From: Centroscyllium fabricii
Taxonomy: Eukaryota
Length of the DNA stretch: 64,000 nucleotides
Assembly: GCA_051313645.2 (NCBI GenBank)
Contig: JBNRSN020000010.1
Coordinates: 76,570,001-76,634,000 of the forward strand
Reading direction: 5' to 3'
This document shows, piece by piece, positions 26,044 through 64,000 of the stretch. The translations under genes were made by a program, and so were the position numbers. Below the pieces are notes generated by a model. The model searched no databases. It had not been told where the DNA came from and saw only the letters and a program-made list of their open reading frames with translations. Numbering within the stretch: position 1 is the stretch's first letter; every line of letters begins with the position of its first letter.

Positions 26044-26050
26044 TATAATA

Positions 26051-38600: not shown

Positions 38601-41600
38601 CTCAGCTACCTCATGGTGCACTATGGTCTAGGTTCACTTGGGTACCTCATGGTGCACTATGATCTAGGTGCACTCAGGTATCTTATGGTGGACTATGATC
38701 TAGGTTCACTCAGGTACCTCATGGTGAACTATCATCTAGGTTCACTCAGGTACCTCATGGTGGACTATGTTCTAGGTGCACTCAGGTACCTCATGGTGGA
38801 CTATGATCTGGTTCACTCAGGTATCTCATGGTGGAATATGATCTAGGTTCACTCAGGTACCTCATGATGGACTATGATCTAGGTTCACTCAGGTACCTCA
38901 TGGTGGACTATGATGTGGTTCACTCAGGTACCTCATGGTGCACTATGATCTAGGTTCACTCCGGTACCTCATGGTGGACTATCATCTAGGTTCACTCAGG
39001 TACCTCATGGTGGACTATGTTCTAGGTTCATAAGAACATAAGAAATAGGAGCAGGAGTAGGCCAATCAGCCCCTCGAGCCTGCTCCGCCATTCAATAAGA
39101 TCATGGCTGATCTGATCCTAACCTCAATTTTATTTTTACTCTCCACCCCGCCCAAACCAATGTAATCACTTTGGAGAGGTGAAAAACCACACATGGCCGC
39201 TCTCAACCTAGCCTCACGTCCACTTACCAGCCCGTTCACCATAACCCCTAATTCCCTTTAATTCCAGGAAACTGTCTATCTCAGTTTTAAATTTATTCAA
39301 CGTAGTAGCTTCTACAGCTCTCTGGGGCAGCAAATTCCACAGCCGCACCACCCTCTGAGTAAAGAAGTTCCCCCTCATCTCAGTTTTAAAATGGGAGCCC
39401 TTTATTTTAAGATTATGCCCCCTAGTCCTAGTCTCACTCACCATTGGGAACATCCTCACCGCATCCACCCGATCAAGCCCTCTCACAATCTTATATATTT
39501 CAATAAGATCGCCTCTCATTCTTCTGAACTCCAATGAGTAGAGGCCCAATCCACTCAGCCTCTCGTCATATGTTAGCCCCCTCATCCCCGGAACTAACCT
39601 AGTGAATCTTCTCTGCACTGCCTCGAGAGCAAGTATGTCCTTTCTTAAATAGGGACACCAGAACTGCACGCAGTATTCCAGGTGTGGTCTCACCAATACC
39701 CTGTACAACTGCAACAAGACCTCCCTGCTTTTAAACTCAATCCCCTTATCAATAAAAGCCAACATTCCGTTGGCCTTCCTTACCACCTGCTGCACCTGCA
39801 TATTAACTTTCTGTGTCCCCTGCACCAGGACCCCAGTTCACTCAGGTACCTCATGGTGCACTATGATCTGGTTCACTCAGGTACCTCATGGTGCACTATG
39901 ATCTAGGTTCACTCAGGTACCTCATGGTGGACTATGATCTAGGTTCACTCAGGTACCTCATGATGCACTATGATCTAGGTTCACTCAGGTACCTCATGAT
40001 GCACTATGATCTAGGTTCACTCAGGTACCTCATGATGGACTATGATCTAGGTTCACTCAGGTACCTCATGGTGGACTATGATGTGGTTCACTCAGGTACC
40101 TCATGATTCACTATGATCTAGGTTCACTCAGGTACCTCATGGTGGACTATCATCTAGGTTCACTTAGGTATCTCATGGTGCACTATGATCTAGGTTCACT
40201 CAGGTACCTCATGGTGGACTATGTTCTAGGTTCACTCAGGTGCCTCATGGTGGACTATGATCTGGTTCACTCAGGTACCTCATGGTGCACTATGATCTAG
40301 GTTCACTCAGGTACCTCATGGTGGACTATGATCTAGGTTCACTCAGGTACCTCATGGTGGACTATGTTCTAGGTTCTCTCAGGTACCTCATGGTGGACTA
40401 TGATCTAGGTTCACTCAGGTACCTCATGGTGGACTATCATCTAGGTTCACTCAGGTACCTCATGGTGCACTATGATCTAGGTTCACTCAGGTACCTCATG
40501 GTGGACTATGACCTAGGTTCACTCAGGTACCTCATTGTGGACTATGATCTAGGTTCACTCAGGTACCTCATGGTGGAGTATGATCTAGGTTCACTCAGGT
40601 ACCTCATGGTGCACTATGATCTAGGATCACTCAGGTACCTCATGGTGCACTATGATCTAGGTTCACTCAGGTACCTCATGGTGGAGTATGATCTAGGTTC
40701 ACTTAGGTACCTCATGGTGCACTATGATCTAGGTTCACTTAGGTACCTCATGGTGGACTATGATGTGGTTCACTCAGGTACCTCATGGTGCACTATGATC
40801 TAGGTTCACTCAGGTACCTCATGGTGGACTATCATCTAGGTTCACTCAGGTATCTCATGGTGGACTATGATCTATGTTCACTCGGGTACCTCATGGTGGA
40901 CTATCATCTAGGTTCACTCAGGTACCTCATGGTGGACTATGTTCTGGGTTCACTCAGGTACCTCATGGTGCACTATGATCTGGTTCTCTCAGGTACCTCA
41001 TGGTGCACTATGATCTAGGTTCACTCAGGTACCTCATGGTGGACTATGATCTACGTTCACTCAGGTACCTCATGGTGGACTATGTTCTAGGTTCTCTCAG
41101 GTACCTCATGGTGGGCTATGATCTAGGTTCACTCAGGTACCTCATGGTGGACTATGATGTGGTTCACTCAGGTACCTCATGGTGCACTATGATCTAGGTT
41201 CACTCAGGTACCTCATGGTGGACTATGATCTAGGTTCACTCAGGTACCTCATGGTGGACTATGTTCTAGGTTCTCTCAGGTACCTCATGGTGGACTATGA
41301 CCTAGGTTCACTCAGGTACGTCATGGTGGACTATCATCTAGGTTCACTCAGGTACCTCATGGTGGACTATGATCTAGGTTCACTCAGGTACCTCATGGTT
41401 ATCTGTGATCTAGGTTCACTCAGGTACCTCATGGTGCACTATGATCTAGGTTCACTCAGGTACCACATGGTGGACTATGATCTGGTTCACTCAGGTACCT
41501 CATGGTGCACTATGATCTAGGTTCACTCAGGTACCTCATGGTGGACTATCATCTACGTTCACTCAGGTACCTCATGGTGGACTATGATCTAGGTTCAGTC

Positions 41601-43020
41601 AGGGACCTCATGGTGCACTATGATATAGGTTCACTCAGCTACCTCAGGGTGGACTATGATCTAGGTTCACTCAGCTACCTCATGGTGCACTATGGTCTAG
41701 GTTCACTTGGGTACCTCATGGTGCACTATGATCTAGGTGCACTCAGGTATCTTATGGTGGACTATGATCTAGGTTCACTCAGGTACCTCATGGTGAACTA
41801 TCATCTAGGTTCACTCAGGTACCTCATGGTGGACTATGTTCTAGGTGCACTCAGGTACCACATGGTGGACTATGATCTAGGTTCACTCAGGTACCTCATG
41901 ATGCACTATGATCTAGGTTCACTCAGGTACCTCATGATGGACTATGATCTAGGTTCACTCAGGTACCTCATGGTGAACTATCATCTAGGTTCACTCAGGT
42001 ACCTCATGGTGGACTATGTTCTAGTTGCACTCAGGTACCTCATGGTGGACTATGATCTAGGTTCACTCAGGTACCTCATGATGCACTATGATCTAGGTTC
42101 ACTCAGGTACCTCATGGTGGACTATCATCTAGGTTGACTGAGGTATCTCATGGTGGACTATGATCTAGGTTCACTCGGGTACCTCATGGTGGACTATTAT
42201 CTAGGTTCACTCAGGTACCTCATGGTGGACTATGTTCTAGGTTCACTCAGGTACCTCATGGTTCACTATGATCTGGTTCACTAAGGTACCTCATGGTGCA
42301 CTATGATCTAGGTTCACTCAGGTACCTCATGGTGGACTATGATCTAGGTTCACTCAGGTACCTCATGGTGGACTATGTTCTAGGTTCTCAGGTACCTCAT
42401 GGTGGACTATGATCTAGGTTCACTCAGGTACCTCATGATGCACTATGATCTAGGTTCACTCAGGTACCTCATGGTGGACTATGATCTAGGTTCACTCGGG
42501 TACCTCATGGTGGACTATCATCTAGGTTCACTCAGGTACCTCATGGTGGACTATGTTCTAGGTTCACTCAGGTACCTCATGGTGCACTATGATCTGGTTC
42601 ACTCAGGTACCTCATGGTGCACTATGATCTAGGTTCACTCAGGTACCTCATGGTGGACTATGATCTAGGTTCACTCAGGTACCTCATGGTTATCTGTGAT
42701 CTGGGTTCACTCAGGTACCTCATGGTGCACTATGATCTAGGTTCACTCGGGTACCTCATGGTGCACTATGATCTAGGTTCATTCAGGTATCTCATTGTGG
42801 GCTATGATCTAGATTCACTCAGGTACCTCATGGTGGACTATGATCTAGATTCACTCAGGTATCTCATGGTGGACTATGATCTTGGTTCATTCAGGTATCT
42901 CATGGTGAACTATGATCTAGGTTCACTCGGGTATCTCATGGTGGACTATGATCTAGGTTCACTCAGGTATCTCATGGTGGAGCATGAGATTTGGATGTTG
43001 GGTTCACTCCGGTACCTCAT
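35655..43020 (+). repeat. 36-bp tandem satellite GGTTCACTCAGGTACCTCATGGTGGACTATGATCTA, about 180 units, interrupted by a CR1
   Basis: Head-to-tail units with no spacers. 35-bp variants (gatctggtt, gatgtggtt) shift the frame. It generates the (LGSLRYLMVDYD)n ORFs. Confidence 0.98.
39031..39835 (-). mobile_element. Young 5'-truncated CR1 inserted in the satellite
   Basis: Uninterrupted 203-aa ORF2 C-terminus (39214-39825), (TTCTTATG)n tail, and TSD GTTCA at 39026-39030 and 39836-39840. Confidence 0.95.
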
Positions 43021-44878
43021 CCAAGTGGCCATTCTTCAGGTATGAGCTTACCTAACATGAAGGGCAACATTGTCGAACCTAATCCTGCCCTCAACTGACA
43101 TCTTCATATGTACTTTCCAGCGGAGATTGCTGGATAACACTCAGAAGTGGAAACCTTGGCTAACTTTCTCCATCCCTAACTCAACGGTGCCAAGGCCAAT
43201 TGCAGCACGATGATTGCAGCGGCAGCTGAGGTTTCAATATGGCACCTTGCTGATTAAATACCTCAGTATCACCCTAAGCAATTAAATCACCCACTGACCC
43301 ACCAGGGAGGTCATTTTTTAGGGCAATATTGTTTTGCTATATATATATGATATATAGTAAGATTTATAACTTTTTTATATATATATATATGTTCAAACTG
43401 TGACAATCAAATGATGTTCAACATTCGTCTTTGTATAGTCACAGGTCTTATCACTAACATTAATGTTATTTGTACAATCACATCATTCCTATCCCATACC
43501 ACTCATTTTTCAATTACAATCAGAACATTGAATTCACATCTTTGAAATAGTAAAGTGATCTTTAATCAATCACCAATATCGCACTCGCATGCTAACCAGC
43601 TAACATCACTTGCTCAAACAAAACTTGTATTTCACAGGGGCTTTCTAATATCCTCAATGTAGGAACATTAGTGATTCATTAAAGCATTGAATGAATATAA
43701 TTTCCATTTTATTTACTGTTTATATTTGTATGTGTGAATTCCTATACTGTAGGCTTAGTGGGTGGATTATTAAAACATGTCATAATGTAAAGGCAAGATA
43801 GCTATTCTATAGCACAACTTATTTGTGTTGATTTTTCCTTCTTTCTGATGAATTTTAAATGCTTTAAATATTTAGCTGGAAATTTTTTGGATAATTTTAA
43901 TTGATTTTCCAATGCGATCACAAAATATAAATTTATTTTAAAAAATCAGGTACCTGTTATTACAAAGTCTGGTTGTAAGTTTGCTGAACTACAGTAGATC
44001 CCTATTACCACGTGCAGGACAAACTTATTGCTCATATCCAGATTTGCACAAAACAGGACTGACTGTACCAGTACGAATCAGGAACAAGTTGGGACCTGAT
44101 CAAAATTTGCTACTCATCTTAATTTCTGGCTTGACATATACCATGGATAAAAGAAAGAACTTGCATTTATATAGGACATTTTCACCTCTCTATCGGAATG
44201 TCCCAAAGTGCTGCACACATAATGGATTACTTTGAAGTGCAGTCACTGTTGCCGAGTTGGAAATGTAGGAGAAATTATTGAGAACATTTAGGCCGTTGAT
44301 AGATTCTGATTCTTGCTCTACACATACTGTCCTCACAAAGTACACATAATGTCATGTGTAATATTGTTACATACTGCAGTCTCCCTCATGTTGCACCATG
44401 AATCTGTGGTGATCTTTTCAAACAACTTGCATTATGAAAATGATTACTGCAAGCAACTTCATGATAGATAATGGTCCTTGGCTGTAATTCTCTCAGCCTG
44501 GTGCCCCAAACTCCACCTTGGTGATTCAGTAAGATATTACTACATCACACCCTACTAAATGGAAACTTGGATACTGCCACTTTTAACACTGTGGTCACAC
44601 AGACATTACACTTATCAAGAGAGCTGAGTCATGATACCGTCACAGGAGTAGACAATCCACGAATCCTGGGGTCAGGTCTCTGCACCAAGAATGAGTATCG
44701 CAGAGTTTAGGTTTGGATGTTCCATGGACCTGCTGAGTACAAGTGTGATATGGTCCCCACTGCTTATATCGGGTGTGTTGGTGTTTACGTGGTTTTTTTA
44801 ATTCATTCTTGGGATGTAGGCTTCGTTGGCAAGACCGGCAGTTATTGCCCATTGCAAGTTGCCCTCCAGTACTTAATA

Positions 44879-45539
44879 CAGGTACACAATCCTTTATCCG
44901 AACACCTCGGGACCGGGCGGTCTTCGGTTTTCGGATAATTTCGGTTTTCGGGATGGTGCCCAGTGCGCATGCGCATTGCCGTGTTGGCAGCCGATTACGC
45001 CTCTGAAACGGTAGGAAATTGTGGGCTAAGAACAGAAAACGCTGGAGAAACTCAGCAGGCCAGGCAGCATCGGTGGAGAGAAGAGCAGAGTTGACGTTTC
45101 AGGTGGAAGACCTTTTTTCATTTTACCGGGGCTCGGGCGCAGCGCTGTGCGAGGGAGGCCGCAGCGGCGGTTCGTGGAACGGCAGGCCGTCCTCTCCCAT
45201 TAAAGGGAGGGGCCTAGCGCAGCTGCCGAGGGACCGGGAGCTGCAGAACAAGCCCAGTACTCGGGGGAAGTGCCGTGTTCAGCTGAGGGAGGGCTCACCC
45301 CGCCGGAGGAGTCGCAGAACGAGCCCGGTACTCTGGGGAGGTGCCGGGCTCAGCTGAGGGAGGGCTCACCCTGCAGTTTTTACATTTCCTATTGAGCAGT
45401 GCAAGGGATGGAATGGGAATGTAATACTTACTACACCAGTATGATTCAAATTAGCTTTCAAAACGGGTCAGGTTTGGCGCAACTTGGGTCATTTTGAAAT
45501 TTCGGTTTTTGGAGTTGCAGATAAAGGATTGTGTACCTG
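44879..45539 (+). mobile_element. Tc1/mariner-type MITE, family B copy 2, with a chimeric interior
   Basis: TA|CAGGTACACAATCCTTTATC ... GATAAAGGATTGTGTACCTG|TA, a perfect 20-bp TIR. Confidence 0.88.
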
Positions 45540-45565
45540 TATTGTGAACTACGTGATCATTTCTG

Positions 45566-45870
45566 TGAGTAACGGTGGCATAGTGGGTAGCATTGTTGCC
45601 TCACAGCGCTAGGGGCCCGGGTTCAAATCCGGCCTCGGGTGACTATCTATGTGGAGTTTGCACATTCTCCCCGTGTCTGCGTGGGTTTCCTCCGGGTGCT
45701 CTAGTTTCCTCCCACAGTCCAAAGATGTGCGAGTTAGGTTGATTGGCCATGATTGACCCTTCATGTTAGGGGGATTAAATATATGGGGGTTACGGGGATA
45801 GGGTGGGATATGTGGCAGGCTCGATGGGCCGAAATGGCCTCTATCTGCACTGTAGGGATTCTATGATTCT
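45566..45870 (+). mobile_element. Full-length V-SINE/HE1-like SINE with short tail
   Basis: tRNA head (GGTTCAAATCC), V-domain, and tail gggccgaaatggcctctatctgcactgtagggattctatgattct. Confidence 0.9.
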
Positions 45871-47604
45871 TTGAAACACCTGCATAGGGACAAAGCCTTT
45901 GGCACTTTACAGTAGTGCTCCAGTGACTGAGTACTAATCCAGAATTTGTGGGATAATGGAAAACTCCTGCATAAAATGTTTGTCTCTGTAGATGTTGCTA
46001 GCATAGTGTTAACCCATGTCAAAGAGACCACAACTACATAAGTTATAAAATAAGCACCACCAGCATTATTAAATCACTTTTTGCAGCTATCGTGAGCCAG
46101 TTTTCATTATTGACAAAACAAAATCATATTTCAAAACGACTTTAGCCAGAGGAATGGCTCCTGGGATTCCTGCTCTATGGGTGGACATTCCTCCTTAGTG
46201 ATTTGGCATAAAATGTTGGAGCAAATTAAATTGCAGTTTGTTTCAATGCTCATCTGGCATTCTGTGAAAACATGCTATTGGTGTTGTACTATTATTAGTA
46301 TCAGAACTGAATATATCCCGGCAACTAACAAGAGCACAAAACATTCTGACAGCATGGACCAAGAAACATGATACGGCCTTAAGAGTGGGAAGTCCGTCAG
46401 AACGTTGTAGTCCAAGAAAGGGGTATGCGGCAAGATGTCTGTTTACTGCAAGAGGTCTGCTTAACTGCAGAAAGTTGAGAGTCTTCCACCCCAGGAACGG
46501 TATTCAAAACAACATAGCCATGTCACACAATGGCTTGCCACTCCTCTGGCAGAGAAGACTGCAGCATCCACTCATTTCTTTACTCTAACCACGTTAGCTG
46601 AGGAGAAAATGAATATGATCTCAACTGCTTCATTCTGACTGCTTCATTGCATGGTTCTGAGACCATCTCTACCTCGTCCTTTTCGGCTGGACTTGATAAG
46701 AGAATTTACTTTACGAAAACAGTGTTTTGGAATGCTGCATATACTACTCCTTGTCTACTGATCTCATCACTGAGAGAAATAAAGTAAAACGCTCAAAATG
46801 GATTATTGCAGACTATTAGATTGCATTTAACAGCTATCTCTGGATTTCATTCTTCCTTAGAAAGGGACTCAGTAGCTTACTTCCTTTAGTATCCTGATTT
46901 ACAAAAGGAGGCAAACTTCTAGTTGAAGCTTATTAAAGTCTTCTTTTGCTTAATCTAACGTACAAAAAACCTTGCATATTTATATCGTGCCTTTAATGTA
47001 GTAAAATGTTCCAAGGTGCTTCACGGGAACATTATCAAACAAAATTTGACACCGAGCCACATAAAGAGATATTAGAACTGGTGACCAAAGCTCGGTCAAA
47101 GAGGTAGGTTTTAAGGAGTGTCTTCTAGGAGGAGAGAGAGGTAGAGAGGCAGAGAGTTTTAGGGAGGGATTTCCAGAGCTCAGGGCCCAGGCAGCTGAAG
47201 GCACGGTCGCCAATGGTGGAGCGACTAAAATTGAGGATGCAAAAGAGGCCAGAATTGGAGGAGCACAGAGATCTTGAAGGCTTGTAGGGTTGGAGGAGAT
47301 GACAGAGATAGGAGGGGCGAGGCCATGGAGGGTTTTGAAAACAAGGATGAGAATTTTAAAATTGAGGTGTTGCCATACTGGGCGCCAATGTAGGTCAGCG
47401 AGCATGGGGTATGGGTGAACGGGACTTGGTGCGAGTTAGGCTATGGGCAACAGAGTTTTGGATGAGCTCAAGTTTATGTTGGGTGGAAGATAGAAGGCTG
47501 GCCAGGAGAGCATTGGAATAGTCAAGTCGATAGGTAACAAAGGCACAGATGAGGGTTTCGGCAGCAGATGAGCTGAGGTAGGGACCACCACCATGGGTGA
47601 TGGG

Positions 47605-50434
47605 TAGGGTTGTAAAGGGCTGGAAAGTTTCCGGTAAATTTCCGGAAATTTTCCATGGGAAGTTTAGCTTGGGAATTTTGGTAATTTTGCCCAAAACAGC
47701 ACATACTAGCATAATATTGTTTTTTTTGTATTTCTTTCTTTTTTTCCCACAGGTCCTCTCTTAAAATTACTAACAGAGATGGAATCTTAATTATTAAGGA
47801 ATTTCTTAATCAATATATGTTTATCTTCTTACTTGTCTTGTTTTAATAATTACAAGTTTTGTGTGTGACTGTGAACAAATGTGTCCTGAGTGAGTGGATG
47901 AGTGATTAGCTCCCTCTATTTGTAATGTTTGCATATTCAATTGTGATTGGCCTGCAGGCATCTGTAAGACTGCTATAGTTTTTTCAAGATCCAGGTTAGG
48001 GGTCCTGAGGGAAGTCATTTTGTTTTCTGCTGATGTTGTGATGATGCAGTAAGTAAATCAGACTTTATACCAAATAAACCAGTTACTTGTTGAACTCTGT
48101 TGTCCTTCAATTTAAAATATACAAAATAATACATTATTGGGGATGTAGCGTCGTGTGTGTACTGGTCATGCTTCCATCACATGGAGCATCAGCAAAAATG
48201 TACTCACCCTGTTGCAATCGTGCTGATCGACCGCAGTTCGACACAGAGATGAATGCCCTTTATTTCTCTGCATAGAACAATGCCACGTTTACCGTCGGAT
48301 GTGTGGATGTATTTTACCCCAGGCATTAAAGATGGAAAGACTGTGTACATATGCAAACAGTGTACAAAGCCATATGTAAAGAATGCCACAAAGATGCAGC
48401 AGCATTTATCCAAATGCAACAACTTCACTCAAAGCTCACAGCAGTCAGCCCAGAGTTCCTCTGCTTCCATTCAAGAAGATGATGGTTCTCATTCAGCGCC
48501 AGGCTCCTTATCATCAGCAACTCCTGGCCCACTTGGAAGGTTCTTTGATACAATGGATAACCATAGCCAGACGAATGCAGATGAGTGCCTTGCTCGAGCT
48601 GTATATGCAACAGGCTCACCCCTCATGCTCACAGCCAATGTGTACTGGAAGAGATTTTTCAATGTTATTTGCCCTGCAAACTGTCCTCCCACCAGACATG
48701 CTTTGTCTACTTATTTGCTGGAGGCTGAGTATAACAGAGTCCAAGGAACGCTCAAAGAAACAATAGCGATGGCAGACTGTGTTGCAGTTATCTCAGATGG
48801 GTGGTCAAATGTACGAGGGGAGGGCATCATAAACTACATCGTCTCCACTCCTCTCCCAGTGTTCTTCAAGAGCACAGACACGAAGGACAACAGACACACA
48901 GGCACATACATTGCTGATGAGCTGAAGGCAGTCATCAACGATCTTGGATCACAAAAGGTCTTTGCAGTAGTTACTGAAAATGCTGCGACTATGAAGGCTG
49001 CTTGGGCTCAAGTGGAGAAGGCCTACCCTCATATTATGTCTATTGGGTGCACAGCTCATGGGCTTAACCTGCTCCTCAAGGCCATCATGGGTTTGAGAAC
49101 CATGGAAGCACTGTACAAGAGAGCCAAGCAAGCTGTTAAGTATGTCAGAGGAAAACAGGTAGTTGCAGCAACCTACAACTCCAAGCAAATGACAAAAACA
49201 AGAACACCACACTGAAGCTTCCCAACAACACTAGATGGGGTGGCGTTGTCATAATGTACAACAGCCTTCTGGAGGGTAAGGAGTCGCTGCAAGAAATGTC
49301 AATATCCCAGTCTGGGGATATGGAAACCACCATCAAGAAAATACTGCTGGATGATGTGTTTTGGGAGAGAGTGGTTAGCAGCCTTAAACTACTCTCACCA
49401 GTAGCATCTGCAATTACTCAGATTGAAGGAGATGACGCTGTCTTGTCAGATGTTCTCAGGCTTTTTACTGATTTAAAAGAACAAATCAGCATTGATCTAC
49501 CCACATCCCTGCTGCTCAAAGCAGAGGAGAAGGCAATTGTTCAATTCATACAGACGCGTCAAGAATTTTGTGTCAAGTCGATTCATGCTGCAGCATACAT
49601 GCTGGACCCAAAGCATGTTGGGAGACCAATACTTTCTGGAGAACAGATCAACAGCGCTTAGTGTGATTTCTACCCTCTCACACAATCTTAATCTGGATGT
49701 GGGCAAAGTTCTGGGAAGTCTGGCAAAGTTCCCTACCAAGCAAGGTCTTTGGAATGGGGACAGGATATGGGAATCATGCAAGCATATCAGTGCACATACC
49801 TGGTGGAAGGGACTTTGTGCACCTGAGGCCCTGTCACCTATTGCATCGGTGATACTCCAAATCCCACCTTCATCAGCGGCCTCTGAACAAAACTGGTCAC
49901 TTTTTGGGAATACGCATACAAAGGTGCGCAACAGGCTGACTAACAAGAGAGTGGAGAAACTGGTGGCTATCCGGGCGAACCTACAACTTATTGAGCCAAA
50001 TACAGAGGTGTCCACCGCACAGCTAGACAGTGACACAGAGGAGGAAATGGGCACGTCAGAGCCAGAGTCAGAGAATCAGGAGGAGCAATGATGAGTAGAA
50101 GACTCAGAAGACTCATGAGTAGAAGACTCAAAGGGACAACATAAGGACAAATTACAGGCTAAATAAGCTGACACTCTTTTTATTTTATTTTAAATGGGTC
50201 CTTTTTGTGGGGGTTCAATAAAGTTCAAAATTATAACCTAAATAAAGTTTTGAAAGCCTGTTTTTATTTGTATGGAACAGTATGTCTATTTTGATGACAA
50301 AGATAATATAAGGGTCAGAGACAAAAACCATCAGTGTGCAAAAAAACTCAAAATTCCCATAAATTCCTATAAATTCCCGAAAATTCCCATGGAAAGTTTC
50401 CTCTTTTAAAAATTCCTGGAATTTTGCAACCCTA
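47605..50434 (+). mobile_element. Full-length hAT DNA transposon (2.83 kb)
   Basis: TIRs TAGGGTTGTAAA / TTTGCAACCCTA, 8-bp TSD GTGATGGG / GTGGTGGG, and subterminal GGAAATT/AATTCC repeats. Confidence 0.95.
48280..50091 (+). pseudogene. hAT transposase (BED zinc finger, DUF659-like, C-terminal dimerisation domain) with two frameshifts
   Basis: Motifs VWMYF...CKQC...QHLSKC, SDGWS, VVTENAA, CTAH, TRWG and SSAASEQNWS...RNRL. Frame breaks near 49195 and 49655. Confidence 0.92.
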
Positions 50435-53330
50435 GTGGTGGGGCGGTGTTACAGAGGTGAAAGGTCTTGGTGATGGAGCGGATATGTGGTCGGGAGCTCA
50501 TCTCGGTGTCAAATATGACACCAAGGTTGTGAATGGTCCCCTTGAACCTAAAGCTTAATTTAACATAAAATATGAGCCTCGATGTGGCAGCTGCCTGAAG
50601 GCAGATCTGGGGCAGGGTGGAACTTCCACCTGCTCCATGGATACACCCTCAACCTTTTCCAAATGAGCATACTTTGGGCAGGTACCTGTGTCATTTCTGG
50701 TGCAATAGGGGCAAGAGGGGAGCGATATGATTGCAGTACGTTGCCACAACTCTCATTTCAATGTTGTTGCTGCCGTAATGGCAGTCAGTCACTCTGTCAG
50801 CGAATGACACAAGGGAATCAGCCTTTGAAATCACAGCAGGCCGCACTTCCGCCAAGCTCAGGCCCTGGCACACTAGCACGCCGGCTTCATGTATTGGGAG
50901 AACAATGGCAGAAGTGGCAGATCTCCTGCAGATGACATTGTCCCATTAGTCCTGCCTATTTCTGTGACATCCACACAGAAATGGGCTGGACACAAAATGA
51001 GGCCATCCCCATTTGCCGCAGAATTTGGCAAGTTCAAAAAGAATGGTGTATGGGCTCAGTGTAACCAGGCCCTGCCCTGAATTACACTACAGGGGTGTAC
51101 TGCCCAGATAAACCACTTTGGCCCAGGAATTTCCACCATCATTATGTCTTTAATATCACATACAAGGATGTGAAGAAGTGTATTAATCATTCCACAGTCT
51201 TACCTCAGCAATCATGAGGAAAGAGTTCTTCATCCTACTTTTTAAATAACTACTGGATGGCAGGAAAAAAGACTATTCTATAAGGCTGTAGCGATTACAA
51301 GAGCTGATTTCAGTAGCATTAGAATGCAATCAGTCAGAGGTTGGATTAATATTTTGCATGATTATCTCCGGGAGTATAGGGAAATATTTCACAAAACGTT
51401 TGGCATTCAGGCAAATTCTACATGGTCGGTGGAGGGAACAGGCTTGCTGGATTGAATGGACTTTGCTCATCTCACACTTTATGCTCCTGGGCTCTGAAGG
51501 AAATAAAGGCATGTGGTCAAGCTGAATTTTGTCGACCGCAGACCCTAACTAGACAGGTCTTTTTTCATAAAATGGAAGTTACTTTGGTAATTGACCTATA
51601 CATGTGAGAAAATTAACAAGGAAGAAGATCATTCACTTTGTAAAGAAGTGCAAATGAAGTTATCTTCTAATTACCAAATAATCCCCAGACCGAGGTCTAC
51701 AGAGAATGGGTTATTACATTATTTATTACTGTGTATTATATTAACAAGTAGGATTCTGAATTTTATCTACAAAGTATTATTAATTTTCTGATTTTTGTTA
51801 ATGTAACTGTTCAGCAAATTGTTTCTTTTTTTTAACTAAACAGGAAAAATGGAATTCATATTTTGGATTTCTTCTCATAACCTTATGCTACCTAGGTCAA
51901 GATAACTAAAGAGAGACCACATGAGGGTGCTAGGGCATGGGAAAAGGAAGTTGTATGGTGTAGGACAAAAAAAATCTCTTAAAGGGATAGACAACCCTCA
52001 TGGTTTCTCCATTGGATTATCTGGCAGGTGTCGGGAAAGATTACACCAAACTATCAACTGGGACACAACCTATTCTCTTCATCATCTAATAAACCTCAAT
52101 CAGATCACCAGTAAGTCTACCCTTCTCTAAAGGGTAGAGTCCCAACTCTTTTAGTCTATGTTAATAACTCCTTAGTTTAGCAGCCTTTCCAAACTACAAG
52201 GGTACACTGGAAAATTGCAGTGGGATTTTCTGATAGCAAGTTAATAGAGCCATTGGATAATCTGGATGCAGCAAATCCAGGAAAATCAGGGGTCAGGAGC
52301 ACCCATCCCAAATGGAGTTGCCCACATTTCCATTCATTAATTTACAGGGATGGAAATTGGGAAGGCGCCCTTGCAGCTGGCCGCTCCTTCCTACTCAATA
52401 TTCCTGTGTCCAGGTGATCCAAAAGCCCCAGGTGCAGAAACAGGAAAATCTGGCCAGGAGCTGATACTTCTAGTAGCTTAACTGGTCATAAGTGTTCCCA
52501 TTATTATTTACATGCTAATTCAGTTGAACTGCATTCGTTATGATCTATTCAATGGAAGATTTAACAAAGGATATTGATTCTTTTTATTCAAACTGGAACA
52601 TTTATATTTCTGTATAGGGCGAAATCAAATCATGTTGCATCCTTGCCTGCCCAAGAAAGTCAAATTCTGCTTACCATACAAATACATTTTACTGTTTAAA
52701 ATATCAAAGTTCACCAGCATGCTCTTAGTAAGCCTTTCATTCTGTGACAGGACCTAATAGGCATAGTATTCAGCTTATAGGCTAGATTCCAGTTACCAGC
52801 TACAAGATTTCACAAACCGGTTAAACAACTAGTTTTGGAGGATAGTTTGCTTAAGTAGAAGTGACGATCTAATGTGGGCTTCATTCCAGATAAATAAGGT
52901 TTGGCATGAAGATTTCTCATGGCAAGAATGCTAAAAATAGGAGTAGGTTAGGTGTGGTATTGAATCAGTGAAGCAGAAAACAGGGTGGTATGAGTAAAGG
53001 GGAAATAAGTTCAATAAAACTTGAGCATAGATGTAGGAGAGTGTTAACCCTACATATGGAGGCACCACACAGAATTGTGTGTGTTTTTTAAAGGTAACTG
53101 CAGAGGAATCACTACTCATATTGTCAGGATCAATTAGTGAATGCATTAAACATAAGCATGTGCAAACTTTCAGGAATATATATTTGGAAGTTCGTGTTTC
53201 TGTTTTTGGCTCGCATTTTAAAGTGCCTATTTCTCATTTGTGAGATAGTAGAAACATTTTTTAAATCTCTGCATGTTAAATGAACCACTCTTCTTACTAA
53301 TGTAAACATTCTGATGAGTATCCAAAGATA

Positions 53331-53355
53331 TGACCTCTATGTGACCCCTTAACCT
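53331..53355 (-). promoter_or_regulatory. Consensus DR5 RARE with an adjacent DR2 half-site
   Basis: The minus strand reads AGGTTA-ag-GGGTCA-catag-AGGTCA. Confidence 0.55.
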
Positions 53356-54526
53356 TGCCTGTAATTATTTGTTTGAAGACAGTATGAAGTTCCCATGCTG
53401 AGAGGGACTATAATGGTTTGCAGCTCTGTGTGCAAGTGTGTACGAGGGGAGCAAGAGAGACTTTATAATAAGGAGACTACCAGATGTAAATAATAAAAAT
53501 GGTTGGGGGTAAAAAGAAAAACCTAGTAATTTAGTCCAGCCCATTACTTGGAGAACGCCAGGGAGAAGTGAATGGGGGAAGGGAAAGAGGAGGGTGCATT
53601 ACCCTGTGATGTGATACAGGAGCACATGCAGTCTCCTTCTCATCTCTGGAGTTTTTTTGTGTCATGTGCACACACCATTAGCGGCTCTTGGGAGGAGAGA
53701 AAACAGCCTTATCTGCCTGGTCTGATAATCTCAATTGGCCGTATTCTGATTGATAAAAGGGAGTGTAGCTACAGAGCTTTGAATCAACTCCCAAAGGGAC
53801 ACAACACATTAGCCTGCCAGTGAGTCTAGTAAGGAGAAGGTTACTATGCTCAAAATGAGCAAGCATGGACACCAAAAGATCTGAAGTGTAATTTACCCTA
53901 CACCTGTAAACCTTTGAGTTCTGATAGCACATCTTTTTTCCACTTGACATCTGAAAAAGTAACCCACAAATTTTAAATGTCACATTATAAAGTATCATTT
54001 TAAAAATGGAAGAGAACGACAGGACAGTTCTTTAGATGCAACAGTCCTATTGCATTTGACACCAGGCTTCAAATAGTTACATTTGGATGTGCTTTCCTTT
54101 TGCTGGTTTCAAATCAAAATGTTAAATATAAACAGTGCAAATTAATGTATTACAATGTTAGATCAGAGTGCAAATGCACACCTCCTAATTAAACTCAGTA
54201 TGCAGGAAAGGCGGGGTGGTAGCATTATATTGATAACAGGTTAGAGCAGCCTGGGCAGTTACCATTACTGCAGAGAGACGGTGTTAGCCGAGTAACATCA
54301 AAGGTAGCTCCGATAATGCTATCCTGTAACCTGTTAGACAAGCAATATCTGGTGCTACCGAGTGTTAGTGGGACAGATTTAATCCCCATTTCTCTCAGCC
54401 ATACTGCCAGAACTGACATCAGCAATGATCAAGGAGCAAGTGACACACCCTTCCCTCTTGAGCACAGTAGGCACATAGTTTGAGGTTACTTGCAAAGAGA
54501 AAAATTGGGAGGGGGTTCTGGGATAA

Positions 54527-57500
54527 TGTAGCGTAGCCACTCAAGAGAGACATCCAGTCTCTCTAGGACACAGAATCCACATTTCCCGAGTGGGCCCGCC
54601 CCCGTTTCCCCAATAGATAAGTTAGATCAACGGTTACGGTCCCTGACTGGTCCGGAGGGCTGTCACTCAAGAGCCCCATGATGCTTTGTGTTTTCGCGCC
54701 ATTTTCCAGCAGTTCTGTGTGGATGAAGTTGAATAAAGACTTGTTTGAATTTGCTCCGCTGTTTTCCTCCGTTTCTTAATATTTAAAGAGTGGGAAACTA
54801 CTGTTCCCCACAATTGGTGACCCCAAATGTCAGACATAGAAAACGCTGACCCGAACACGCCTGCCGTGGCCGACCAGAACGAACGGCCATCGACTACCAG
54901 TCTCCCTGCCTTTTAGGAACACCAAGCAGCCGCTTGGTTCATTCAAACGGAGGCACAATTTTGATTACGACGCATCACTCACGATGAGGACCGCTATCTC
55001 CTCGTTGTTGCAGCCCTGCCGAGCCACGTTGCCGTCGACCTGCTCCGGGACCCGCCGCCAGCCAACAGGTACGCTGCCGTTAAGAAGCGACTGTTTCAGG
55101 CCCACAACCTACCGGAGGCCGTGCGGGCCCGGCAACTTCTCGAACTCCTGGTTCTCGGTGATTCCACGCCCACACGCTTAATGAACCGTATGCTCGCCCT
55201 GCTTGGCGACCACAAGGACTGCCCTTTGTTCAGGGCACTCTTTATCAACCTGCTTCCGCAGCCGGTGCAATCCGCGTTAGCGAACATTAAAGGTGGGGAC
55301 TATGCCGATTTGGTCGCCGCTGCAGACCACGTCTGCCTGTGTACGCCCTCCACGTGCGCCACCACGAGGCCCCCAGCGCCCATGCCGCAACCAACGCCTC
55401 GACCGCAGCTGGAGTTTTGCTATTATCATGCACGCTTCGGCCCGAAGGCCCACCGCTGCCGACCACCTTGTTCCTTCGACGGCAAGGTGGCCCAACCCAA
55501 ACCCAATGCTCCGAGCCAGCCTTGCTGCCAAGGATCAGCTGCTGCTAACGCCATGGGCACAGCAGGTCAGTTGCTATATATTACAGACTCTCTGTCCGGG
55601 CAACAATTCCTCTGCGACACAGGGGCCCAGCTCAGCATCTTACCGGCTACGCGCTCCGATCGACGGTCCAGCCGCAGCAGCCCACTCCTCGTGGCAGTGA
55701 ATGGCGCAGCAATAGCCATGTTCGGTAAGAGGTGAGCGGAAATCCGACTGGATGACTAACGATTTGCCTGGGATTTTGTCACGGCCAATATAGCACATCC
55801 ATTGCTGGTCGCGGATTTCCTGTGTGCCCACGGCCTGCTCGTGGACGTCCGGGGCAGACATCTGATGGATGCATCTACTTTCGCATCGTTCCCCTGCCAA
55901 CGAAGTGATGGCCAACCCCTCGTAAGCTTCTGCTCTCCTCCTCCGGGCGATAAGTACGCGCACCTGCTGGCCGAGTTCCCAACCATCATGCAGCCGACCT
56001 TCTCCGATGGGTCAGCCAAACACGGCGTCCAACATCATATCGCCACTACTGGTCCACCGGTCTTCGCCCGAGCCAGACGCCTCGACCCTACAAAGATGGC
56101 GGTGGCCAAGCAGGAATTCTCGGCCATGGAGAAGTTAGGGAATCATTCGACCTTCCAACAGCCCGTGGTTGTCCCCACTCCACATTGTCCCCAAGCCAGG
56201 AGGCGGTTGGCGACCGTGTGGTGACTACCGGTGCCTTAACGATGCCACCACGCCGGACAGGTAACCAGTGCCACATATTCAAGACTTTTCGGCCCATTTG
56301 GTGGGCACTACCATTTTTTCGAAAGTCGACCTCATCCGGGGTTATCACCAGGTCCCGGTCCATCCGGATGACATCCAAAAGACAGCCGTTATTACACCAT
56401 TCGGACTTTTTGAATTCCTGCGCATGCCCTTTGGGTTAAAGAACGCGGCACAGGTTTTCCAACGGTTGATGGACTCTGTCCTTCGGGACTTGGACTTTTT
56501 GTTTGTATATCTTGATGATATTTTAGTTTCTAGTGCTAACGAATCTCAACATGTAATGCACCTGCGCTCACTTTTTCAGAGATTGGCCCATCATGGCCTG
56601 ATTGTTAACCCAGTTAAATGCCAATTCAGCCGCCCTGAAAATGATTTTGTAGGGCATCACATCTCCCCCGGCGGGAGCTATCCCTTTGCGCTCCAAGGTG
56701 CAGGCGGTCGCGGACTTTCCCCAACCTAACTCGGTTAAGTCACTCCAGGAATTCCTTGGAATGGTTCATTTTTACAACCGATTCATTCCCAAGGTGGCCT
56801 CCATCATGCGCCCCCTGTACGAAGCTACCAGGGGCAAGACCGGCAAGGATAGTCTTCAGTGGTCGGCCGATATGGTTGAGGCTTTTCGCCTCGCTAAGTC
56901 GGCTTTGGCTGAAGCCACCCTTTTGACCCACCCCATTCCGGAAGCTCCACTGTCGCTCACGACCGATGCCTCGGATCATGCCATTGGCGCCGTTCAGCAG
57001 CAGTGGGTGGATGGTGCCTGGCAGCCCCTCGCCTTTTTTTAGCCGCCAGCTGCGGAAAAGTGAGCTCTCGTATAGCACGTTCGATCGAGAACTGCTAGCT
57101 CTTTTTCTCGCAGTGCGGCATTTTCGTTTTCTTTTAGAGGGCCGTCCTTTTACGGCCTACATGGACCATAAACCCCTCATTTTTGCCCTGTCCAAAGTCA
57201 CAGAGCCTTGGTCAGGTCGCCAACAGCGCCACCTGAATTTCATTTCTGAGTTTACAACGGATATTCGCCACGTGTCCAGTAAAGATAATGTCGTTGCAGA
57301 CTGCCTGTCCCGTCCTTCTCTCAATGCAGTCCACGTTGGTGTTGATTATGCTGAAATGGCATGCACCCAGCGAGCGGACACTGAGCTGCAGGCTCTTCGT
57401 GCTGCGTCCACCAGCCTGACCCTAGCATACGTCCATTTTAACGACGCCGGCATGACCCTTTTGTGTGACGTGTCCGTCTCCACCCCAGGCCATTGGTGCC

Positions 57501-58350
57501 TACCTCTTGGCGCAGGCGCATTTTCGAGTTGGTCCATGGCCTCTCACACCCGGGAATGCGGGCTTCTCAGAAGCTTATGTCCGCCAAATTCGTTTGGCCA
57601 GGCCTGCATAAAGATGTGTGGAACTGGACCAACACCCGCCAGGACTGTCAGCATACCAAAGCTCCCTTGCAAATTTTTCCGATGCCCGAGCGGCGCTTTC
57701 ATCATGTCCATGTTGACCTGGTGGGCCCATTGCCCCCATCGCAGGGTTTCACCCATCTCCTTACTGTCGTAGACCGCACCACTAGGTGGCCAGAGGGCGT
57801 ACCTCTTTCTTCCACCACTGCAGCCGACGTCGCACGTGCCTTCATTTTTTCTTGGGTGGCCCGTTTTGGGGTACCGTCAGACATCACTTCCGACAGGGGC
57901 CTGCAGTTTACCTCTCAACACAAGTGCACCGCATAACTGCGTACCATCCGCAGGCTAATGGCATTTGCGAACGCTTCCACCGCGCCCTTAAGGCTTCACT
58001 CTAAACTAGCCTGGTTGACGCCAATTGTTTGGACAGGCAACCTTGGGTTTTGCTGGGATTGCGATCTGTGCCCAAGGACAACCTCGGCGTTTCATCCGCC
58101 AAACTCATTTTTGGACAGCCTTTGGGTGTTCCAGGAGAATTCTTTCCCTCCACCACTGACCCTTGCTCGGCCGGCGAGCAACTCGCCCAGCTTAACGACG
58201 CAGCGCACGTTTCCTCCCTGTACCCACCTCTCGGCATGGTGCCCGGTCGTCCCACATGCCTACTGAGCTCCGTCGGGCTAAATTTGTCTTTATGCGTCGT
58301 GATGCCCACAGAACCCCCTTGCAGGCGCCTTACACTGGCCCTTTCAGGGT
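54527..58350 (+). mobile_element. Ty3/Gypsy LTR retrotransposon, CsRn1 clade, degenerate and 3'-truncated
   Basis: 5' LTR TG...CA at about 54527-54812, with AATAAA at 54732. PBS TGGTGACCCC at 54815 (tRNA-Trp). Gag starts at 54827 and has CYYH-x9-C-x3-C. Pol motifs: PR LCDTGA, RT YLDD, RH TDAS, IN HVDLVGPLP/ITSDRG/ERFHR. Multiple stops and frameshifts. Confidence 0.95.
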
Positions 58351-58592
58351 GGGCAAGAACATAGGAAATGGAATATAATGTGGAGAAATGTGAAGTTATC
58401 CACTTTGGTAGAAAAAATAGAAAAGCAGAGTATTTTTTAAATGGTGAGAGATTGGGAAATGTTGTTGTTCAGAGGGGCCTAGGTGTCCTTGTACACAAAT
58501 CACTGAGGTTAACATGCGGGTACAGCAAGCAATTAGGAATGCAAATGGTATGTTGGCCTTTATTACAAGAGGATTTGAGGATAAGAGTAAAG

Positions 58593-58805
58593 GGGCTAGA
58601 AATTGGCTGTCCTGCGCCTGCCCGTTAGCGCCCAGAACTTTGGCTGCAGCGCACTAAGAACGAGGGCGGGCATGTGTTTTAGCGCCCGCCCTCCTTCTAT
58701 GGGCGCTAGAGGTAAATTTTGGAGCTAACGGCACCAGCGATCAGCTGGCGCTAAAAACAGCGCTGGTCCGAGCTTAGCGCTACAAAACGTGCCAATTTCT
58801 CCCCC
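58593..58805. mobile_element. Short Harbinger MITE (family C-related) inserted in CR1
   Basis: AAG|GGGCTAGAAATTGG ... CCAATTTCTCCCCC|ATG. Confidence 0.8.
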
Positions 58806-59103
58806 ATGACGTCTTACTGCAATTATATAGGGCCCTGGTGAGACACATCTGGAGTATTGTGCACAGTTTTGGTCTCCTTACCTAAGGAAGGATATACTTG
58901 CCATAGAAGGAGTGCAACGAAGGTTCACCGGACTGATTCCTGGGATGGGGGGATTGTCCTATGAGGAGAGATTGAGTAGACTAGCACTATATTCTCCAGA
59001 GTTTAGAAGATTGAGAGGTGATCTCATTGAAACATACAAAATTCTTACAGGGCTTGACAGGGTAAATGCAGGGAGGATGTTTCCCCTGGCTGGGGAGTCT
59101 AGA

Positions 59104-60339
59104 TACATAGAAGGTAGGAGCAGGAGTAGGCCATTTGGCCCCTCGAGCCGGTTCCACCATTTAATGAGATCATAGCTGATCATCCAAATTCAGTACCCTT
59201 TATCTGCTTTCTCCCCATATCCCTTGATCCCTTTAGTCTTAAGAAATATATATAACGCTTTCTTGAATATATTTAATGAATTGGCCTCAGCTGCCTTCTG
59301 TGGTAGAGAATTCCACAGGTTCACCACTCTCTGGGTGAAGAAATTCTTCCTCATTTCTGCCCTAAATGGCTTATCCCTTATCCTTAGACTATGACCCTGG
59401 TTCTGGACTCCCCTGCCATCGGGAACATCCTTCCTGCATCTAGTCTGTCTAGTCCTGTTAGAATTTTATAAGTTTCAATGAGATCCCCTTTCATTCTTCT
59501 AAACCCTAGTGAATATAAGCCTACAGGGTACTGGTGAGGCCACACCTGGAGTACTGCGTACAGTTTTGGTTTCCATATTTAAGAAAAGATATACTTGCTC
59601 TCGAGGCTGTTCAGAGAAGGTTCACTCGGTTGATTCCGGAGATGAGGGGGTTGACTTATGAGGAAAGGTTGAGTAGGTTGGGCCTCTACTCATTGGAATT
59701 CAGAAGAATGAGAGGCGATCTTATCGAAACATATAAGATTGTGAGGGGGCTTGATCGGGTGGATGCGATGAGGATGTTTCCATTTGATGGGTGAGACTAG
59801 AACTAGGGGACATAATCTTAGAATAAGGGGCTGCCCTTTCAAAACTGAGATTAGGAGAAACTTCTTCACTCAGAGGGTAGTAAATCTATGCAATTTGCTA
59901 CCTCAGAGAGCTGTTGAAGCTGCAACATGAATTAAATTTAAAACAGAGATAGACAGTTTCCTAGCTGATAAGGGAATAAGGGGTTACGGGAAACGGGCAG
60001 GGAAGTGGACGTGAGTCTAAGTTCGGATCAGCCATGATCCTATTGAATGGCGGAGCAGTCCCGAGGGGCCGTATGGCCTACTCCTGATCCTACGTGTTAT
60101 GTTCTTATGTTCTAATCGACCCAATCTCTCCTCATACATCATTCCTACCATCCCAGGTATCAGTCTGGTGAATCTTCGCTGCACTCTCTCCATGGCAAGA
60201 ACATCCTTCCTCAGATAAGGTGATCAAAACTGCACACACTATTCAAGATGTGGTCTCACCAAGGCTCTGTACAACTGCAGCAATATAACCTTGTTCCTGT
60301 ACTCGAATCCTCTCACTATGAAGGCCAACATGCCTTCTT
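59104..60339 (-). mobile_element. Middle CR1 (same subfamily as the 10850 copy), itself interrupted
   Basis: The reverse tail is at 59104. It breaks at aatataagccta (~59523) and resumes at ctaatcgacc (~60112). Confidence 0.88.
59523..60111 (+). mobile_element. Inner CR1 3' fragment (related to the 39031 copy)
   Basis: RPHLEYCVQFWFPYLRKDILALEAVQRRF, ending ttatgttcttatgtt. Confidence 0.9.
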
Positions 60340-62374
60340 AACTAGAACCAGGGGTCACAGTCTCAGAATAAGGGGTCGGCCATTTAGGACTGAGATGGAG
60401 AAACTTCTTCACTCAGAGGGTGGTGAATCTTTGGAATTCTCTACCCCAGAGGGCTGTGGAGGATCAGTCGTTGATTATATTCAAGACAGAGATCGATAGA
60501 TTTTTGAATATTAAGGGAATCAAGGGATATGGGATAGTGCAGGAAAGTGGAGATAAGGTAGAAGATCAGACATGATCTTATTGAATCGCGGAGCAGGCTC
60601 GAAGGGCCAAACGGCCTACTCCTCCTCTTATTATGTTCTTATGTATATATCCAATTCCCCTTTGAAAGTCACTATTAAATCTGCTTCCACCACCCTTTCA
60701 GGCAGTGCATTCCGGGTCATTCCAGATAAATGTCTTTTATGTAATGTTGTGACGTAGATTATTCCCCATTTTGTTAGGTCCACGTGGTCTTTTAAACCCC
60801 CTGCATCTGAGAGGATGTGTGTGTTACTTACTCCTGCATTACTATCATTGCTCCCTGTAGCCAGCCAGCTTTAGATGCTTCAACTGGACAAACAGGACGC
60901 TCCCTTCTGAATTCACTCCCCCAACAGGGAGACACTGCAGCTTCTGCTTAGTGTGGCTTAGTTCAGGAAGTGAGAATTGAACCCACAATTGATCTTTTAC
61001 ATGACACTAAACATTGGTGTCTGCCTGTATTTCCCCTTTTAGTTTGGTACTGTTTGCCACCTGAGCGACACTTCCTCCATTAGCCAAGAGCTCCGAACAC
61101 TGAAATTCAGAATTCTCCACTGAGGCCGTGAATGCTGCTCTGTGATTTGTCAATGGGAGACACAATATAGTGGGTGGGACTTGTCCTGCCAATTTTTCTT
61201 CCCACATGGGTGAAAATACCCTGCTTTTGCAAAGTACCCCATCTACTGGCCTGCTTGAGAACTGACAACCACTTAAATATCATTTAAACACAGGATTCAG
61301 ACTTGGGACCTCTGGTTAGAAGTCCAGTCATACTGCTAGAGTGACACAACTCCTATTGAAAAAAAGCATGACCTTCATCTAAGAGCTTTTATTTGAAAAT
61401 TGCAGTTTCAAAACTACCCACAAAACCTCCACTAAAAACTGCAGTGGGTGTGCATTATAACCGTTCTGTTTAATTGCACATGATCTTGATTCAGATTTGA
61501 CTTCAAAGTCTACTGATTGAAATCAAAAATATATCTGCAGACACGCATGTCACACGCATAACTTAATATCACTTTGTGCCTTGCTACAATTCATTATGGT
61601 GGCAAGTGTGAACGCGGGATAAATTGGATTCAGTTTGGATCTGGTAATCGTAACTGAACTGGCTCTTATTTGGAACAGGGTCACTTTGTGTATTCTGACT
61701 GCGGAACAGACGTTTGTTTACTGACAATTTGATTTAATGATATCTGCACTGCTTGTTATAAAGATGCCTCAACATTTCCCTGAAGATCATCTCTTTCTTC
61801 GGTTGCTTAGCTAGTTTTAATGCCTGAAGCAGCATTTCAACTGAAGCTTAGGCAAGACAAGTAATTGTGTTGGGTGACATTTTTTTTGACAACAAAGATA
61901 GAATGCAAATCTTTAGAGGATTCCCCTTCAATAATCTGTATACAGATAGAAAATAATTCATAATGCACTTGCTAAAACATTGGCAAAAATTATTACAATC
62001 CTGTTAGAAGGTAAATTCAGAAATAAGAATGCTTACTTTAGAATAATAAGCTATTTGACTATGGCTATTTCGCATCAGAAATCTGTTATGGGATAGTGGG
62101 GGGTTTTTTGGGCTCCTGGTTCACTCTCCTCTCTTTCTCCCCATCCCCCAATTTCACAGCCAGGAGACATTTGTGACATGCCATTCGCATGAGTTGTATT
62201 TCTTGCACTGAGTTGGATATAAAAGACAGTGGAGTAGTTTGGCTCCATTTCAAATGCAAACATTTGGCCTCCACATAGAGATTGCTAACATTTTAGATAG
62301 TAAGAAATATGAGGGGTTTTTCATGGCGGGGTGGGGGCCGGGGGCAGGGGGGGTGGTGCGCAGGGACTGGGCTG

Positions 62375-63070
62375 GGAGGCAGGGCAGATAAATTAAAGCC
62401 AGGCCTGTGATGATTAATTTCACATATCTTTTATGAAGCGATTTTATCTGGCTGTTTGGGAAGAACAGGAAAGTGGTAATTTTCTGGTAACAGGGAAGGA
62501 CCGTCAAGCTGTATCATAATTTGTCAAATCAAAAGTGAAATCCAAGGTTGCCACAATTTTTTTTTACAACTGCTGCACTTTGGTGGTGTTCTTCTGGAAG
62601 TACAATAATTGGAGAACTTTTTTTATGTAAGAAGTTTGCACTTAAGTTTTCCAGAAAAGTACTAATTTTAAAGACCTTAATGGACTGGTGCCCCCACCAC
62701 CATTTTTGATCCCTCTCCGTCCCTTTGATTCCCAAAATGACAAAAGATACAAGTGCCTGAGTGCAAACATATCTTTCATCTCAAAATAAGAAGTGTCTGT
62801 TTCGACCTGTAGAAAGAAGTCGTCTATTTTCAAATGTCTTTTAGTACCCACATTCCTGATGGGCATTTGCCTTTTTTTTCTGCCCTGGGTGTGGAAATCT
62901 TGGTTGAAAAGGTCACTGTTGCCAGTCGCTAACCTCTAAATGACCCCTTGACTTTACAGTCTAAAACTGCAGGAGCTGCGAATGAGCAGGAGCCTTTCTG
63001 TACCAGCACTTATTTGCTGCTGTGGTGATAAAACTTCAGACAGCCTAATTGATGGGCTTGCTGACATAAC
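62375..63070. promoter_or_regulatory. Putative conserved non-coding elements upstream of the second exon
   Basis: GATAAATTAAAG and TGATGATTAATT motifs, a DR5+DR2-like element at 62930-62954, and CTAATTGATGG near 63045. No recognisable TEs. Confidence 0.45.
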
Positions 63071-63403
63071 AATACCTTGTGAAAGCAGAGAGTGGCAAAG
63101 CCTGGTCTTCATTTATGGACAGCTGGAAGGGGAGTTGCACCCCCTCTGAGGAGAAAGCAACCTATTTGAGGCAATGAACTTTTACCATGTTTGTGCCTCT
63201 TGCACAGGCAGACATTCCATCTTAAACACTAAAATTTTAAATGGTTGACGTCAGAGGCCTTTAAATCAACAGATGACAAATGTGCTCATATGTACGGGTG
63301 TCTTTTCTGTGCCTTCAACGAATTAAAATGATGCAAAAGTATAAGTTCTAAAATCATGTTTTAACTAAGAAATTAAAATCTACCCTTTTCTCGTTTGTTT
63401 CAG

Positions 63404-63462
63404 GTTTATTAATGCCAGGAGAAGAATAGTACAACCCATGATCGACCAGTCAAATCGAGCAG
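63404..63462 (+). CDS. MEIS1/MEIS2: MEIS homeodomain coding exon (equivalent to mammalian exon 9), (W)FINARRRIVQPMIDQSNRA; GC donor
   Basis: The acceptor is cccttttctcgtttgtttcag and the exon is 59 nt. The TG|G join with the upstream exon restores W of WFINARRR. The donor is CAG|GCAAGT. SNRA rather than SNRT favours MEIS1/2 over MEIS3. Confidence 0.97.
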
Positions 63463-64000
63463 GCAAGTCTCAAGTAGTAACTTAATTTAACTTAATTTAA
63501 GCCCCGCAGGCACAAATCCACATCAAGTTATTCTTCAGGGGTTCCTTCACCTGGTAAATAAACCTGGCAGCCAGGCATTCTGGGAGAGCTTTTGTCCCAG
63601 AATTCCAATGCAGGGAGCAACCTCACTAATTGGTGTCAACTGAAATTCCCCACCCTCACTTTCCTGAAGCTGCTTTTATTTCTGTTAATAATGGTAATTG
63701 GGCAAATATTCTTGCACCACAAGTAGCTTGCTGAGTGGGTACTGCTGCTGACTCACTGGCCATCTTTTGCAGCCACTTGATGCTTTCCTTACTGCTCACA
63801 ACTCCTTGGTGAATGCGCTTACTTATTTCACCAATGCTGCTGTTTATCACCATTAATGATAGCTGCGGATTGCTTGAAAAGATTACTGCTAAAGTTCACC
63901 TAAATGCATTCGCTGTTTACCAGTTGGTTGGATGAAACATCAAGGAATATATTTTGCACCATTCAATAATTCTAACAAGAAAAGTAAGCATGAGTATGAA

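Follow-up and report, generated by a model that had tools for sequence, protein, structure and literature searches.

A decayed exon 10' behind a GC splice donor of Meis2 in the shark Centroscyllium fabricii

Results

The Meis2 locus

The window, i.e. the whole analysed stretch of 64,000 nucleotides from Centroscyllium fabricii (assembly GCA_051313645.2, contig JBNRSN020000010.1, positions 76,570,001 to 76,634,000 of the forward strand), contains exons 9 and 10 of a Meis gene and the long intron between them.

17835..17911, + strand: Meis2 exon 9 (77 nt; homeodomain, HPYP...QVNN), located by motif scan and Pfam (Homeobox_KN, E 6e-12), with AG/GT borders
17912..63403, + strand: intron 9 (45,492 nt)
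63404..63462, + strand: exon 10 (59 nt; encodes the last part of the homeodomain, and the linker)

The exon 9 peptide is identical to that of Meis2a from Pristiophorus japonicus (P0047). The length of intron 9 is nearer to that of human Meis2 (53,637 nt) than to that of human Meis1 (19,433 nt), as listed in Table 1 of PMC3140891. The motif scan detected no exon 11 motif within the 64-kb window, and exon 11 falls outside it. Inside intron 9, at about 58350-58470, a frame resembles the end of a LINE reverse transcriptase, presumably of the CR1 type. Two runs of N, which are assembly gaps or masked stretches, were also observed (579-870 and 18637-18870), the second of them 0.7 kb past exon 9.

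Exon 10' and its two donors

Exon 10 is directly followed by a segment that is homologous to an alternative extension of Meis exon 10, called exon 10'. Two donors border this segment.

63463..63553, + strand: relic of exon 10' (91 nt, against 81 nt or 27 codons where orthologues are intact), from homology to the Meis2a insert
63460..63468, + strand: proximal GC donor CAG/GCAAGT (the slash marks the junction), predicted default donor
63551..63559, + strand: distal GT donor CTG/GTAAAT (GT at 63554), predicted 3' end of exon 10', from the junctions of homologous models and from the metagenome locus L015

The peptide pieces that can be read from the relic share 25 of 26 residues with the insert of P. 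japonicus Meis2a (P0047), which is far beyond chance, and 23-24 of 26 residues with the inserts of four other shark or ray Meis2a proteins. The identity to Meis1 inserts was 15-17 of 26 residues. Based on these counts (23-25 versus 15-17), sequence comparison identifies the gene as Meis2, and the assignment to MEIS1 was rejected. An earlier note, made from the letters of this DNA, had recognized a MEIS gene here, which was borne out by both the Pfam match of the homeodomain and the homology of the insert. In intact orthologues, the insert is a basic and serine-rich segment of 27 residues between the homeodomain and the C-terminal region. No Pfam family matched the exon 10' extension, and 11 candidates, none of them significant, came from a search in which the query was the latter half of 10' with intron sequence.

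The genomic arrangement was compared by a pattern scan for the exon 10 donor. It matched 60 metagenome loci (55 with GT and 5 with GC), and no match appeared in the genome-contig or viral-contig sets scanned. An intact 10' of vertebrate type was present in 1 of the 60. This single vertebrate-type DNA locus (L015), which is from a teleost and represents a Meis1-like paralogue, shares the GC donor and the distal GTAAAT with the window and has an 81-nt 10' with an open frame. Its alignment with the window contains one 10-nt gap. Four metagenome loci (L007, L016, L017 and L028) have a GC donor after exon 10 without a recognizable 10' peptide, so a GC donor can outlast the extension.

The homeodomain exon ends at the GC donor exactly as the earlier note had placed it, with the last base of exon 10 at 63462. 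GC donors are generally weaker than GT donors. The proximal donor matches the consensus at the other 8 positions, and the distal donor matches at 7 of 9. The predicted duplex energies with the U1 5' end were -7.4 kcal/mol for the GC donor, -5.3 kcal/mol for the distal donor and -10.0 kcal/mol for the exon 9 donor. The complete consensus match outside the GC and the stronger U1 pairing than that of the distal site suggest that the GC donor is likely the default donor, giving the normal Meis2. In homologous models, the exon 10' junction coincides with the position of the distal donor and is spliced to exon 11. Once the duplication described below is discounted, the distal donor at 63554 lies 81 nt past the GC donor, and its phase would suit exon 11 at the level of sequence.

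Two lesions in the window copy

The reading frame of exon 10' is broken in the window by two changes.

63483..63485, + strand: codon 8 of exon 10', a premature TAA in place of the Val/Ile of orthologues; 68 nt separate it from the distal junction
63478..63500, + strand: perfect 10-bp tandem duplication that shifts the 10' frame (TRF period 10, 2.3 copies)

Reading through the GC donor gives SNRA-GKSQVVT and then the TAA, in agreement with the earlier note. The duplication at 63481-63500 was also described there, and its two units (63481-63490 and 63491-63500) are indeed identical, with which TRF agrees. When 10 nt are discounted, the exon frame runs on as FKPRRHKSTSSYSSGVPSPGK-stop (63496-63561), and the TAA of this stop (63559-63561) lies inside an AATAAA (63557-63562), again as previously described. 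With periods of 1, 2 and 5 and two-letter units excluded, this is the sole perfect tandem duplication with a 10-nt unit in the 64-kb window.

The TAA is a separate lesion, since it is found in either copy of the repeat where orthologues have Val/Ile. The duplication as the only lesion was rejected, because the TAA stays whichever copy is removed. One repeat unit and the next base (63491-63501) read CTTAA-T-TTAAG, in which the two arms are perfectly inverted about the central T. We speculate that the two-base change creating the stop might have come from template switching at this near-palindrome.

Exon 10' among homologous models

We classified by pattern match 110 proteins in which exons 9 and 10 are joined, all of them computational predictions collected with queries that favoured 10'-containing forms and in 90% clusters that hide members. 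Of these, 53 have 27 residues followed by a downstream exon (P0076 among them being a mis-call), 20 skip 10', 10 read through and 27 are of other types. None of the 110 ends in GK, within the same limits of prediction, query and clustering, and a GK-ending isoform backed by transcripts may exist beyond this set. The earlier note had taken the extension for a C-terminal tail ending in PGK. This was not supported, since annotated homologues carry an internal insert of 27 residues spliced to exon 11, and GK-stop occurs among the collected proteins only in frames from unspliced DNA; PGK as a conserved C-terminus was rejected. The note was right that the coding extension has decayed here, and the extension is homologous to that of other species.

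The proteins ending in GK were 11 of 161, none of them with exon 9 joined, and 10 of the 11 are open frames starting inside intron 9. Such frames were thus probably called straight from unspliced DNA, as gene callers do. A search for long proteins resembling a GK-ending frame gave 38 matches with none ending in GK, which is a weak result since clusters hide members. In 27 read-through frames, many of them near-related and not independent, the residues after the insert are GK-stop (10), GKY (6), GKW (1), GNK (1) and GNH/GNV (9). Here the letters of the donor are kept and the stop is not.

Nine named chondrichthyan species have Meis2a models that show exon 10'. In 7 of them it is undamaged and joined to exon 11; in the other 2 it is broken. 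In Mobula birostris (P0122, P0124 and P0046), 10' is frameshifted and exon 11 is joined out of frame at the position of the distal donor, and the last 10' residues track the shifted frame of the window (FFRGSFT versus FIRSSFT). In Narcine bancroftii (P0126), 10' is also frameshifted, and the model reads through both donors and ends with TW-stop in intron 10. The lesions of the two rays and of the window are different and lie at different positions, so on sequence grounds they are likely independent. Exon 10' is intact in the congener M. hypostoma (P0131) and also in Hypanus sabinus, so the M. birostris lesion is either recent or an assembly error.

Two other types of models were observed. Nine teleost Meis1/Meis1b models (P0092, P0185-P0191 and P0199) lack exons 11-12: they run past both donors of exon 10 and stop 5-36 residues inside intron 10. 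Several of them are labelled isoform X1 or are the only isoform. They could be retained introns, annotation artefacts or real truncated Meis1b. In bird and carp models (P0045, P0054, P0060, P0063, P0086-P0090 and P0095), the first nine 10' residues are joined to exon 11, which may be an annotation artefact or reflect an intermediate donor like that reported in Saccoglossus.

The AATAAA at the distal donor

The distal donor overlaps an AATAAA, and the intron sequence behind it has a distant Meis2-type match.

63557..63562, + strand: AATAAA, overlapping the distal donor at +4..+9; candidate poly(A) signal
63554..63626, + strand: first ~75 nt of intron 10, matched in two frames by the tail of the Meis2-type ORF P0031 (score 33; the highest score of 298 random stretches of the window was 29)

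The earlier note had proposed a poly(A) site as the main competitor of the GC donor. This proposal was not supported. The note had also overlooked the second donor, CCTG/GTAAAT at 63554, which overlaps the AATAAA. The window contains 42 copies of AATAAA (0.066 per 100 nt) and 22 copies of GTAAAT, and AAA follows only one of the latter. The T content at +20..+60 of the AATAAA at 63557 is 0.20, the third lowest among the 42 sites, and a TTTTGT is located downstream at 63590-63595. No upstream TGTA (the UGUA element) was found in 63463-63557. This element is common but not obligatory at poly(A) sites.

The GC donor and the 81-nt frame are present in L015, but the AATAAA is missing in this Meis1 paralogue, the single vertebrate-type DNA locus, in which neither AATAAA nor ATTAAA occurs in 200 nt. 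L015 reads GTAAATACA at the place of the hexamer (AATACA). AATACA is a recognized minor variant of the hexamer. In the read-through frames, the hexamer is absent from the GKY and GKW types, and the GK-stop and GNK frames of Meis2 type are compatible with AATAAA. The tail of P0031 places Asn-Lys exactly over the AATAAA of the window and has a second match at 63597-63626. This two-frame match suggests that intron 10 begins with a conserved stretch of ~75 nt, possibly with the hexamer in it, which is shared by a distant Meis2-type sequence and may be a non-coding element beside the distal donor. The AATAAA may be common to shark and amniote-type Meis2.

Whether this hexamer forms a composite terminal exon has to be weighed. 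If neither donor is used, cleavage near 63575-63590 directed by the AATAAA at 63557 would yield a homeodomain-bearing Meis2 without exons 11-12, ending in GKSQVVT. Because hexamer and distal U1 site overlap, U1 would compete with the cleavage factor there, and this possibility can coexist with the identity of the segment as exon 10'. The canonical hexamer lies 95 nt behind the GC donor, whose U1 pairing is suboptimal (-7.4 kcal/mol versus -10.0 kcal/mol for the exon 9 donor), and the GTAAAT followed by AAA is rare in the window. The same possibility is favoured by the P0031 match (Asn-Lys over the hexamer with ~75 nt of conserved intron behind) and by the ten models ending in intron 10 (nine teleost Meis1 and the Narcine Meis2a). 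Ten of the 27 read-through frames, from Meis1-type as well as Meis2-type sequences (the latter including P0003, P0038, P0151 and P0152), have GK-stop, which also favours it, as does the TTTTGT at 63590-63595. However, the distal donor's own sequence accounts for both GK-stop and the initial AAT of the hexamer, half of which is thus donor sequence. The hexamer is absent in L015 and in the GKY/GKW frames, including 8 of the 9 teleost read-through models, and the missing upstream TGTA, the U-poor downstream flank and the lack of any GK end among the 110 exon-joined proteins also argue against it. The teleost models end in GKY... (8) or GKC... (1), so their ends are independent of a TAA at the GK position; retention of the intron accounts for them just as well as polyadenylation. 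Among titles and abstract openings, no paper on polyadenylation in Meis intron 10 was found; most subscription papers fall outside this scope, and PMC3140891 is the only one of those covered that treats the region. U1 binding is reported to suppress intronic poly(A) sites (PMC4227790), and the two U1 sites here are located at, or shortly upstream of, the AATAAA at 63557. Taking these points together, the AATAAA probably does not serve as a regulated poly(A) site, and a composite terminal exon is unlikely.

Retention of intron 10 without local cleavage was also considered. Slow splicing at the GC donor would leave the intron in the RNA, which in the window gene would stop at 63483 and remain nuclear or be degraded. 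The general weakness of GC donors and the read-through models in teleosts and Narcine fit this explanation. The shortness of human intron 10 (1,155 nt in Meis1 and 1,366 nt in Meis2; PMC3140891) also speaks for it. However, retention accounts for the oddities of annotation but not for the conservation of 27 codons or for the spliced 10' models, and we regard it as very unlikely.

The last alternative holds that C. fabricii has an intact 10' and that an assembly error or a private allele accounts for the duplication and the stop. Samples X1 and X2, which belong to the same organism and to one study, were found to contain 1.00 of the 160 sampled words of 62500-64000. No run on record as RNA was listed as containing these words, which says nothing about expression. 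The duplicated allele has 27 specific 31-mers, and the chance that none of them fell among the sampled words is ~0.045. This word-level result favours the duplication as a real allele, although X1 or X2 is possibly the assembly's own source. Short tandem duplications are a known type of consensus error, and 10' is intact in 7 of the 9 chondrichthyan species modelled, but the sampled words and the occurrence of the stop as a separate change in both repeat copies make this the least probable explanation of all.

Discussion

Our results suggest that the stretch 63463-63553 is the known exon 10' of Meis2, lying between the GC donor at 63463 and a predicted donor at 63554, with its frame broken by a stop and a 10-base duplication. 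The GC donor likely serves for the normal protein, whereas a transcript spliced at the second donor would probably be prone to decay. We give this reading a probability of about 0.8.

Exon 10' is an ancient alternative 5'-splice extension of Meis exon 10, and the upstream donor is GC in 46% of the studied genes (Irimia et al. 2011, PMC3140891). In vertebrates, its inclusion is very low, it has been lost at least 6 times, and chicken Meis2 carries in-frame stops in it (PMC3140891). The feature, the GC donor and the recurrent decay are already published, and no effect on the main Meis2 protein is expected. The window copy resembles the published exon in its position directly behind exon 10, the GC upstream donor, the conserved peptide and the alternative downstream donor, and it resembles chicken Meis2, another vertebrate Meis2 whose 10' frame has decayed, there by in-frame stops. 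In contrast, a stop with a 10-bp duplication is a lesion not described in that study, and the words 'shark' and 'polyadenylation' do not occur in its main text. The two rays share with the window the start of the peptide, a frameshift inside 10' and a recognizable position of the distal donor, but their lesions are their own and lie elsewhere, and as database predictions they could include assembly errors.

The following working is proposed. In C. fabricii, the GC donor would be dominant and give the normal Meis2, as its U1 pairing and RT-PCR in other vertebrates suggest. In species with an intact 10', rare use of the distal donor would add 81 nt, i.e. the basic, serine-rich insert of 27 residues before the C-terminal region. 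In the window gene, the same choice would add 91 nt with an early stop. According to the 50-55 nt rule, a stop 68 nt before the distal junction would likely lead to nonsense-mediated decay. Rare inclusion would put the 10' frame under weak selection, which fits the repeated losses.

A further idea concerns the RNA rather than the 27-residue peptide. The distal end of 10', G/GTAAATAAA, might be a conserved overlap with a dual use, in which donor and poly(A) signal compete, yielding a Meis that has the homeodomain but not the activation region, and this RNA function would keep 10' and the ~75 nt behind it from sharks to amniotes while the frame decays. We consider this idea improbable. The locus resembles the composite terminal exons with intronic poly(A) sites under U1 control described in PMC4227790 in having a non-canonical donor followed by an intronic AATAAA and a C-terminally truncated predicted product. 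It differs in that the hexamer overlaps a second donor and in that the auxiliary elements are weak. Why 10' is conserved yet hardly ever included was left open by Irimia et al. (PMC3140891), and if the overlapping AATAAA is used to make a truncated Meis, it would offer a direct test of this question.

In conclusion, on the reading of the segment as a decayed exon 10', the Meis2 gene of C. fabricii would be one more independent loss of 10' in the published series, and the rays would add two candidate losses.
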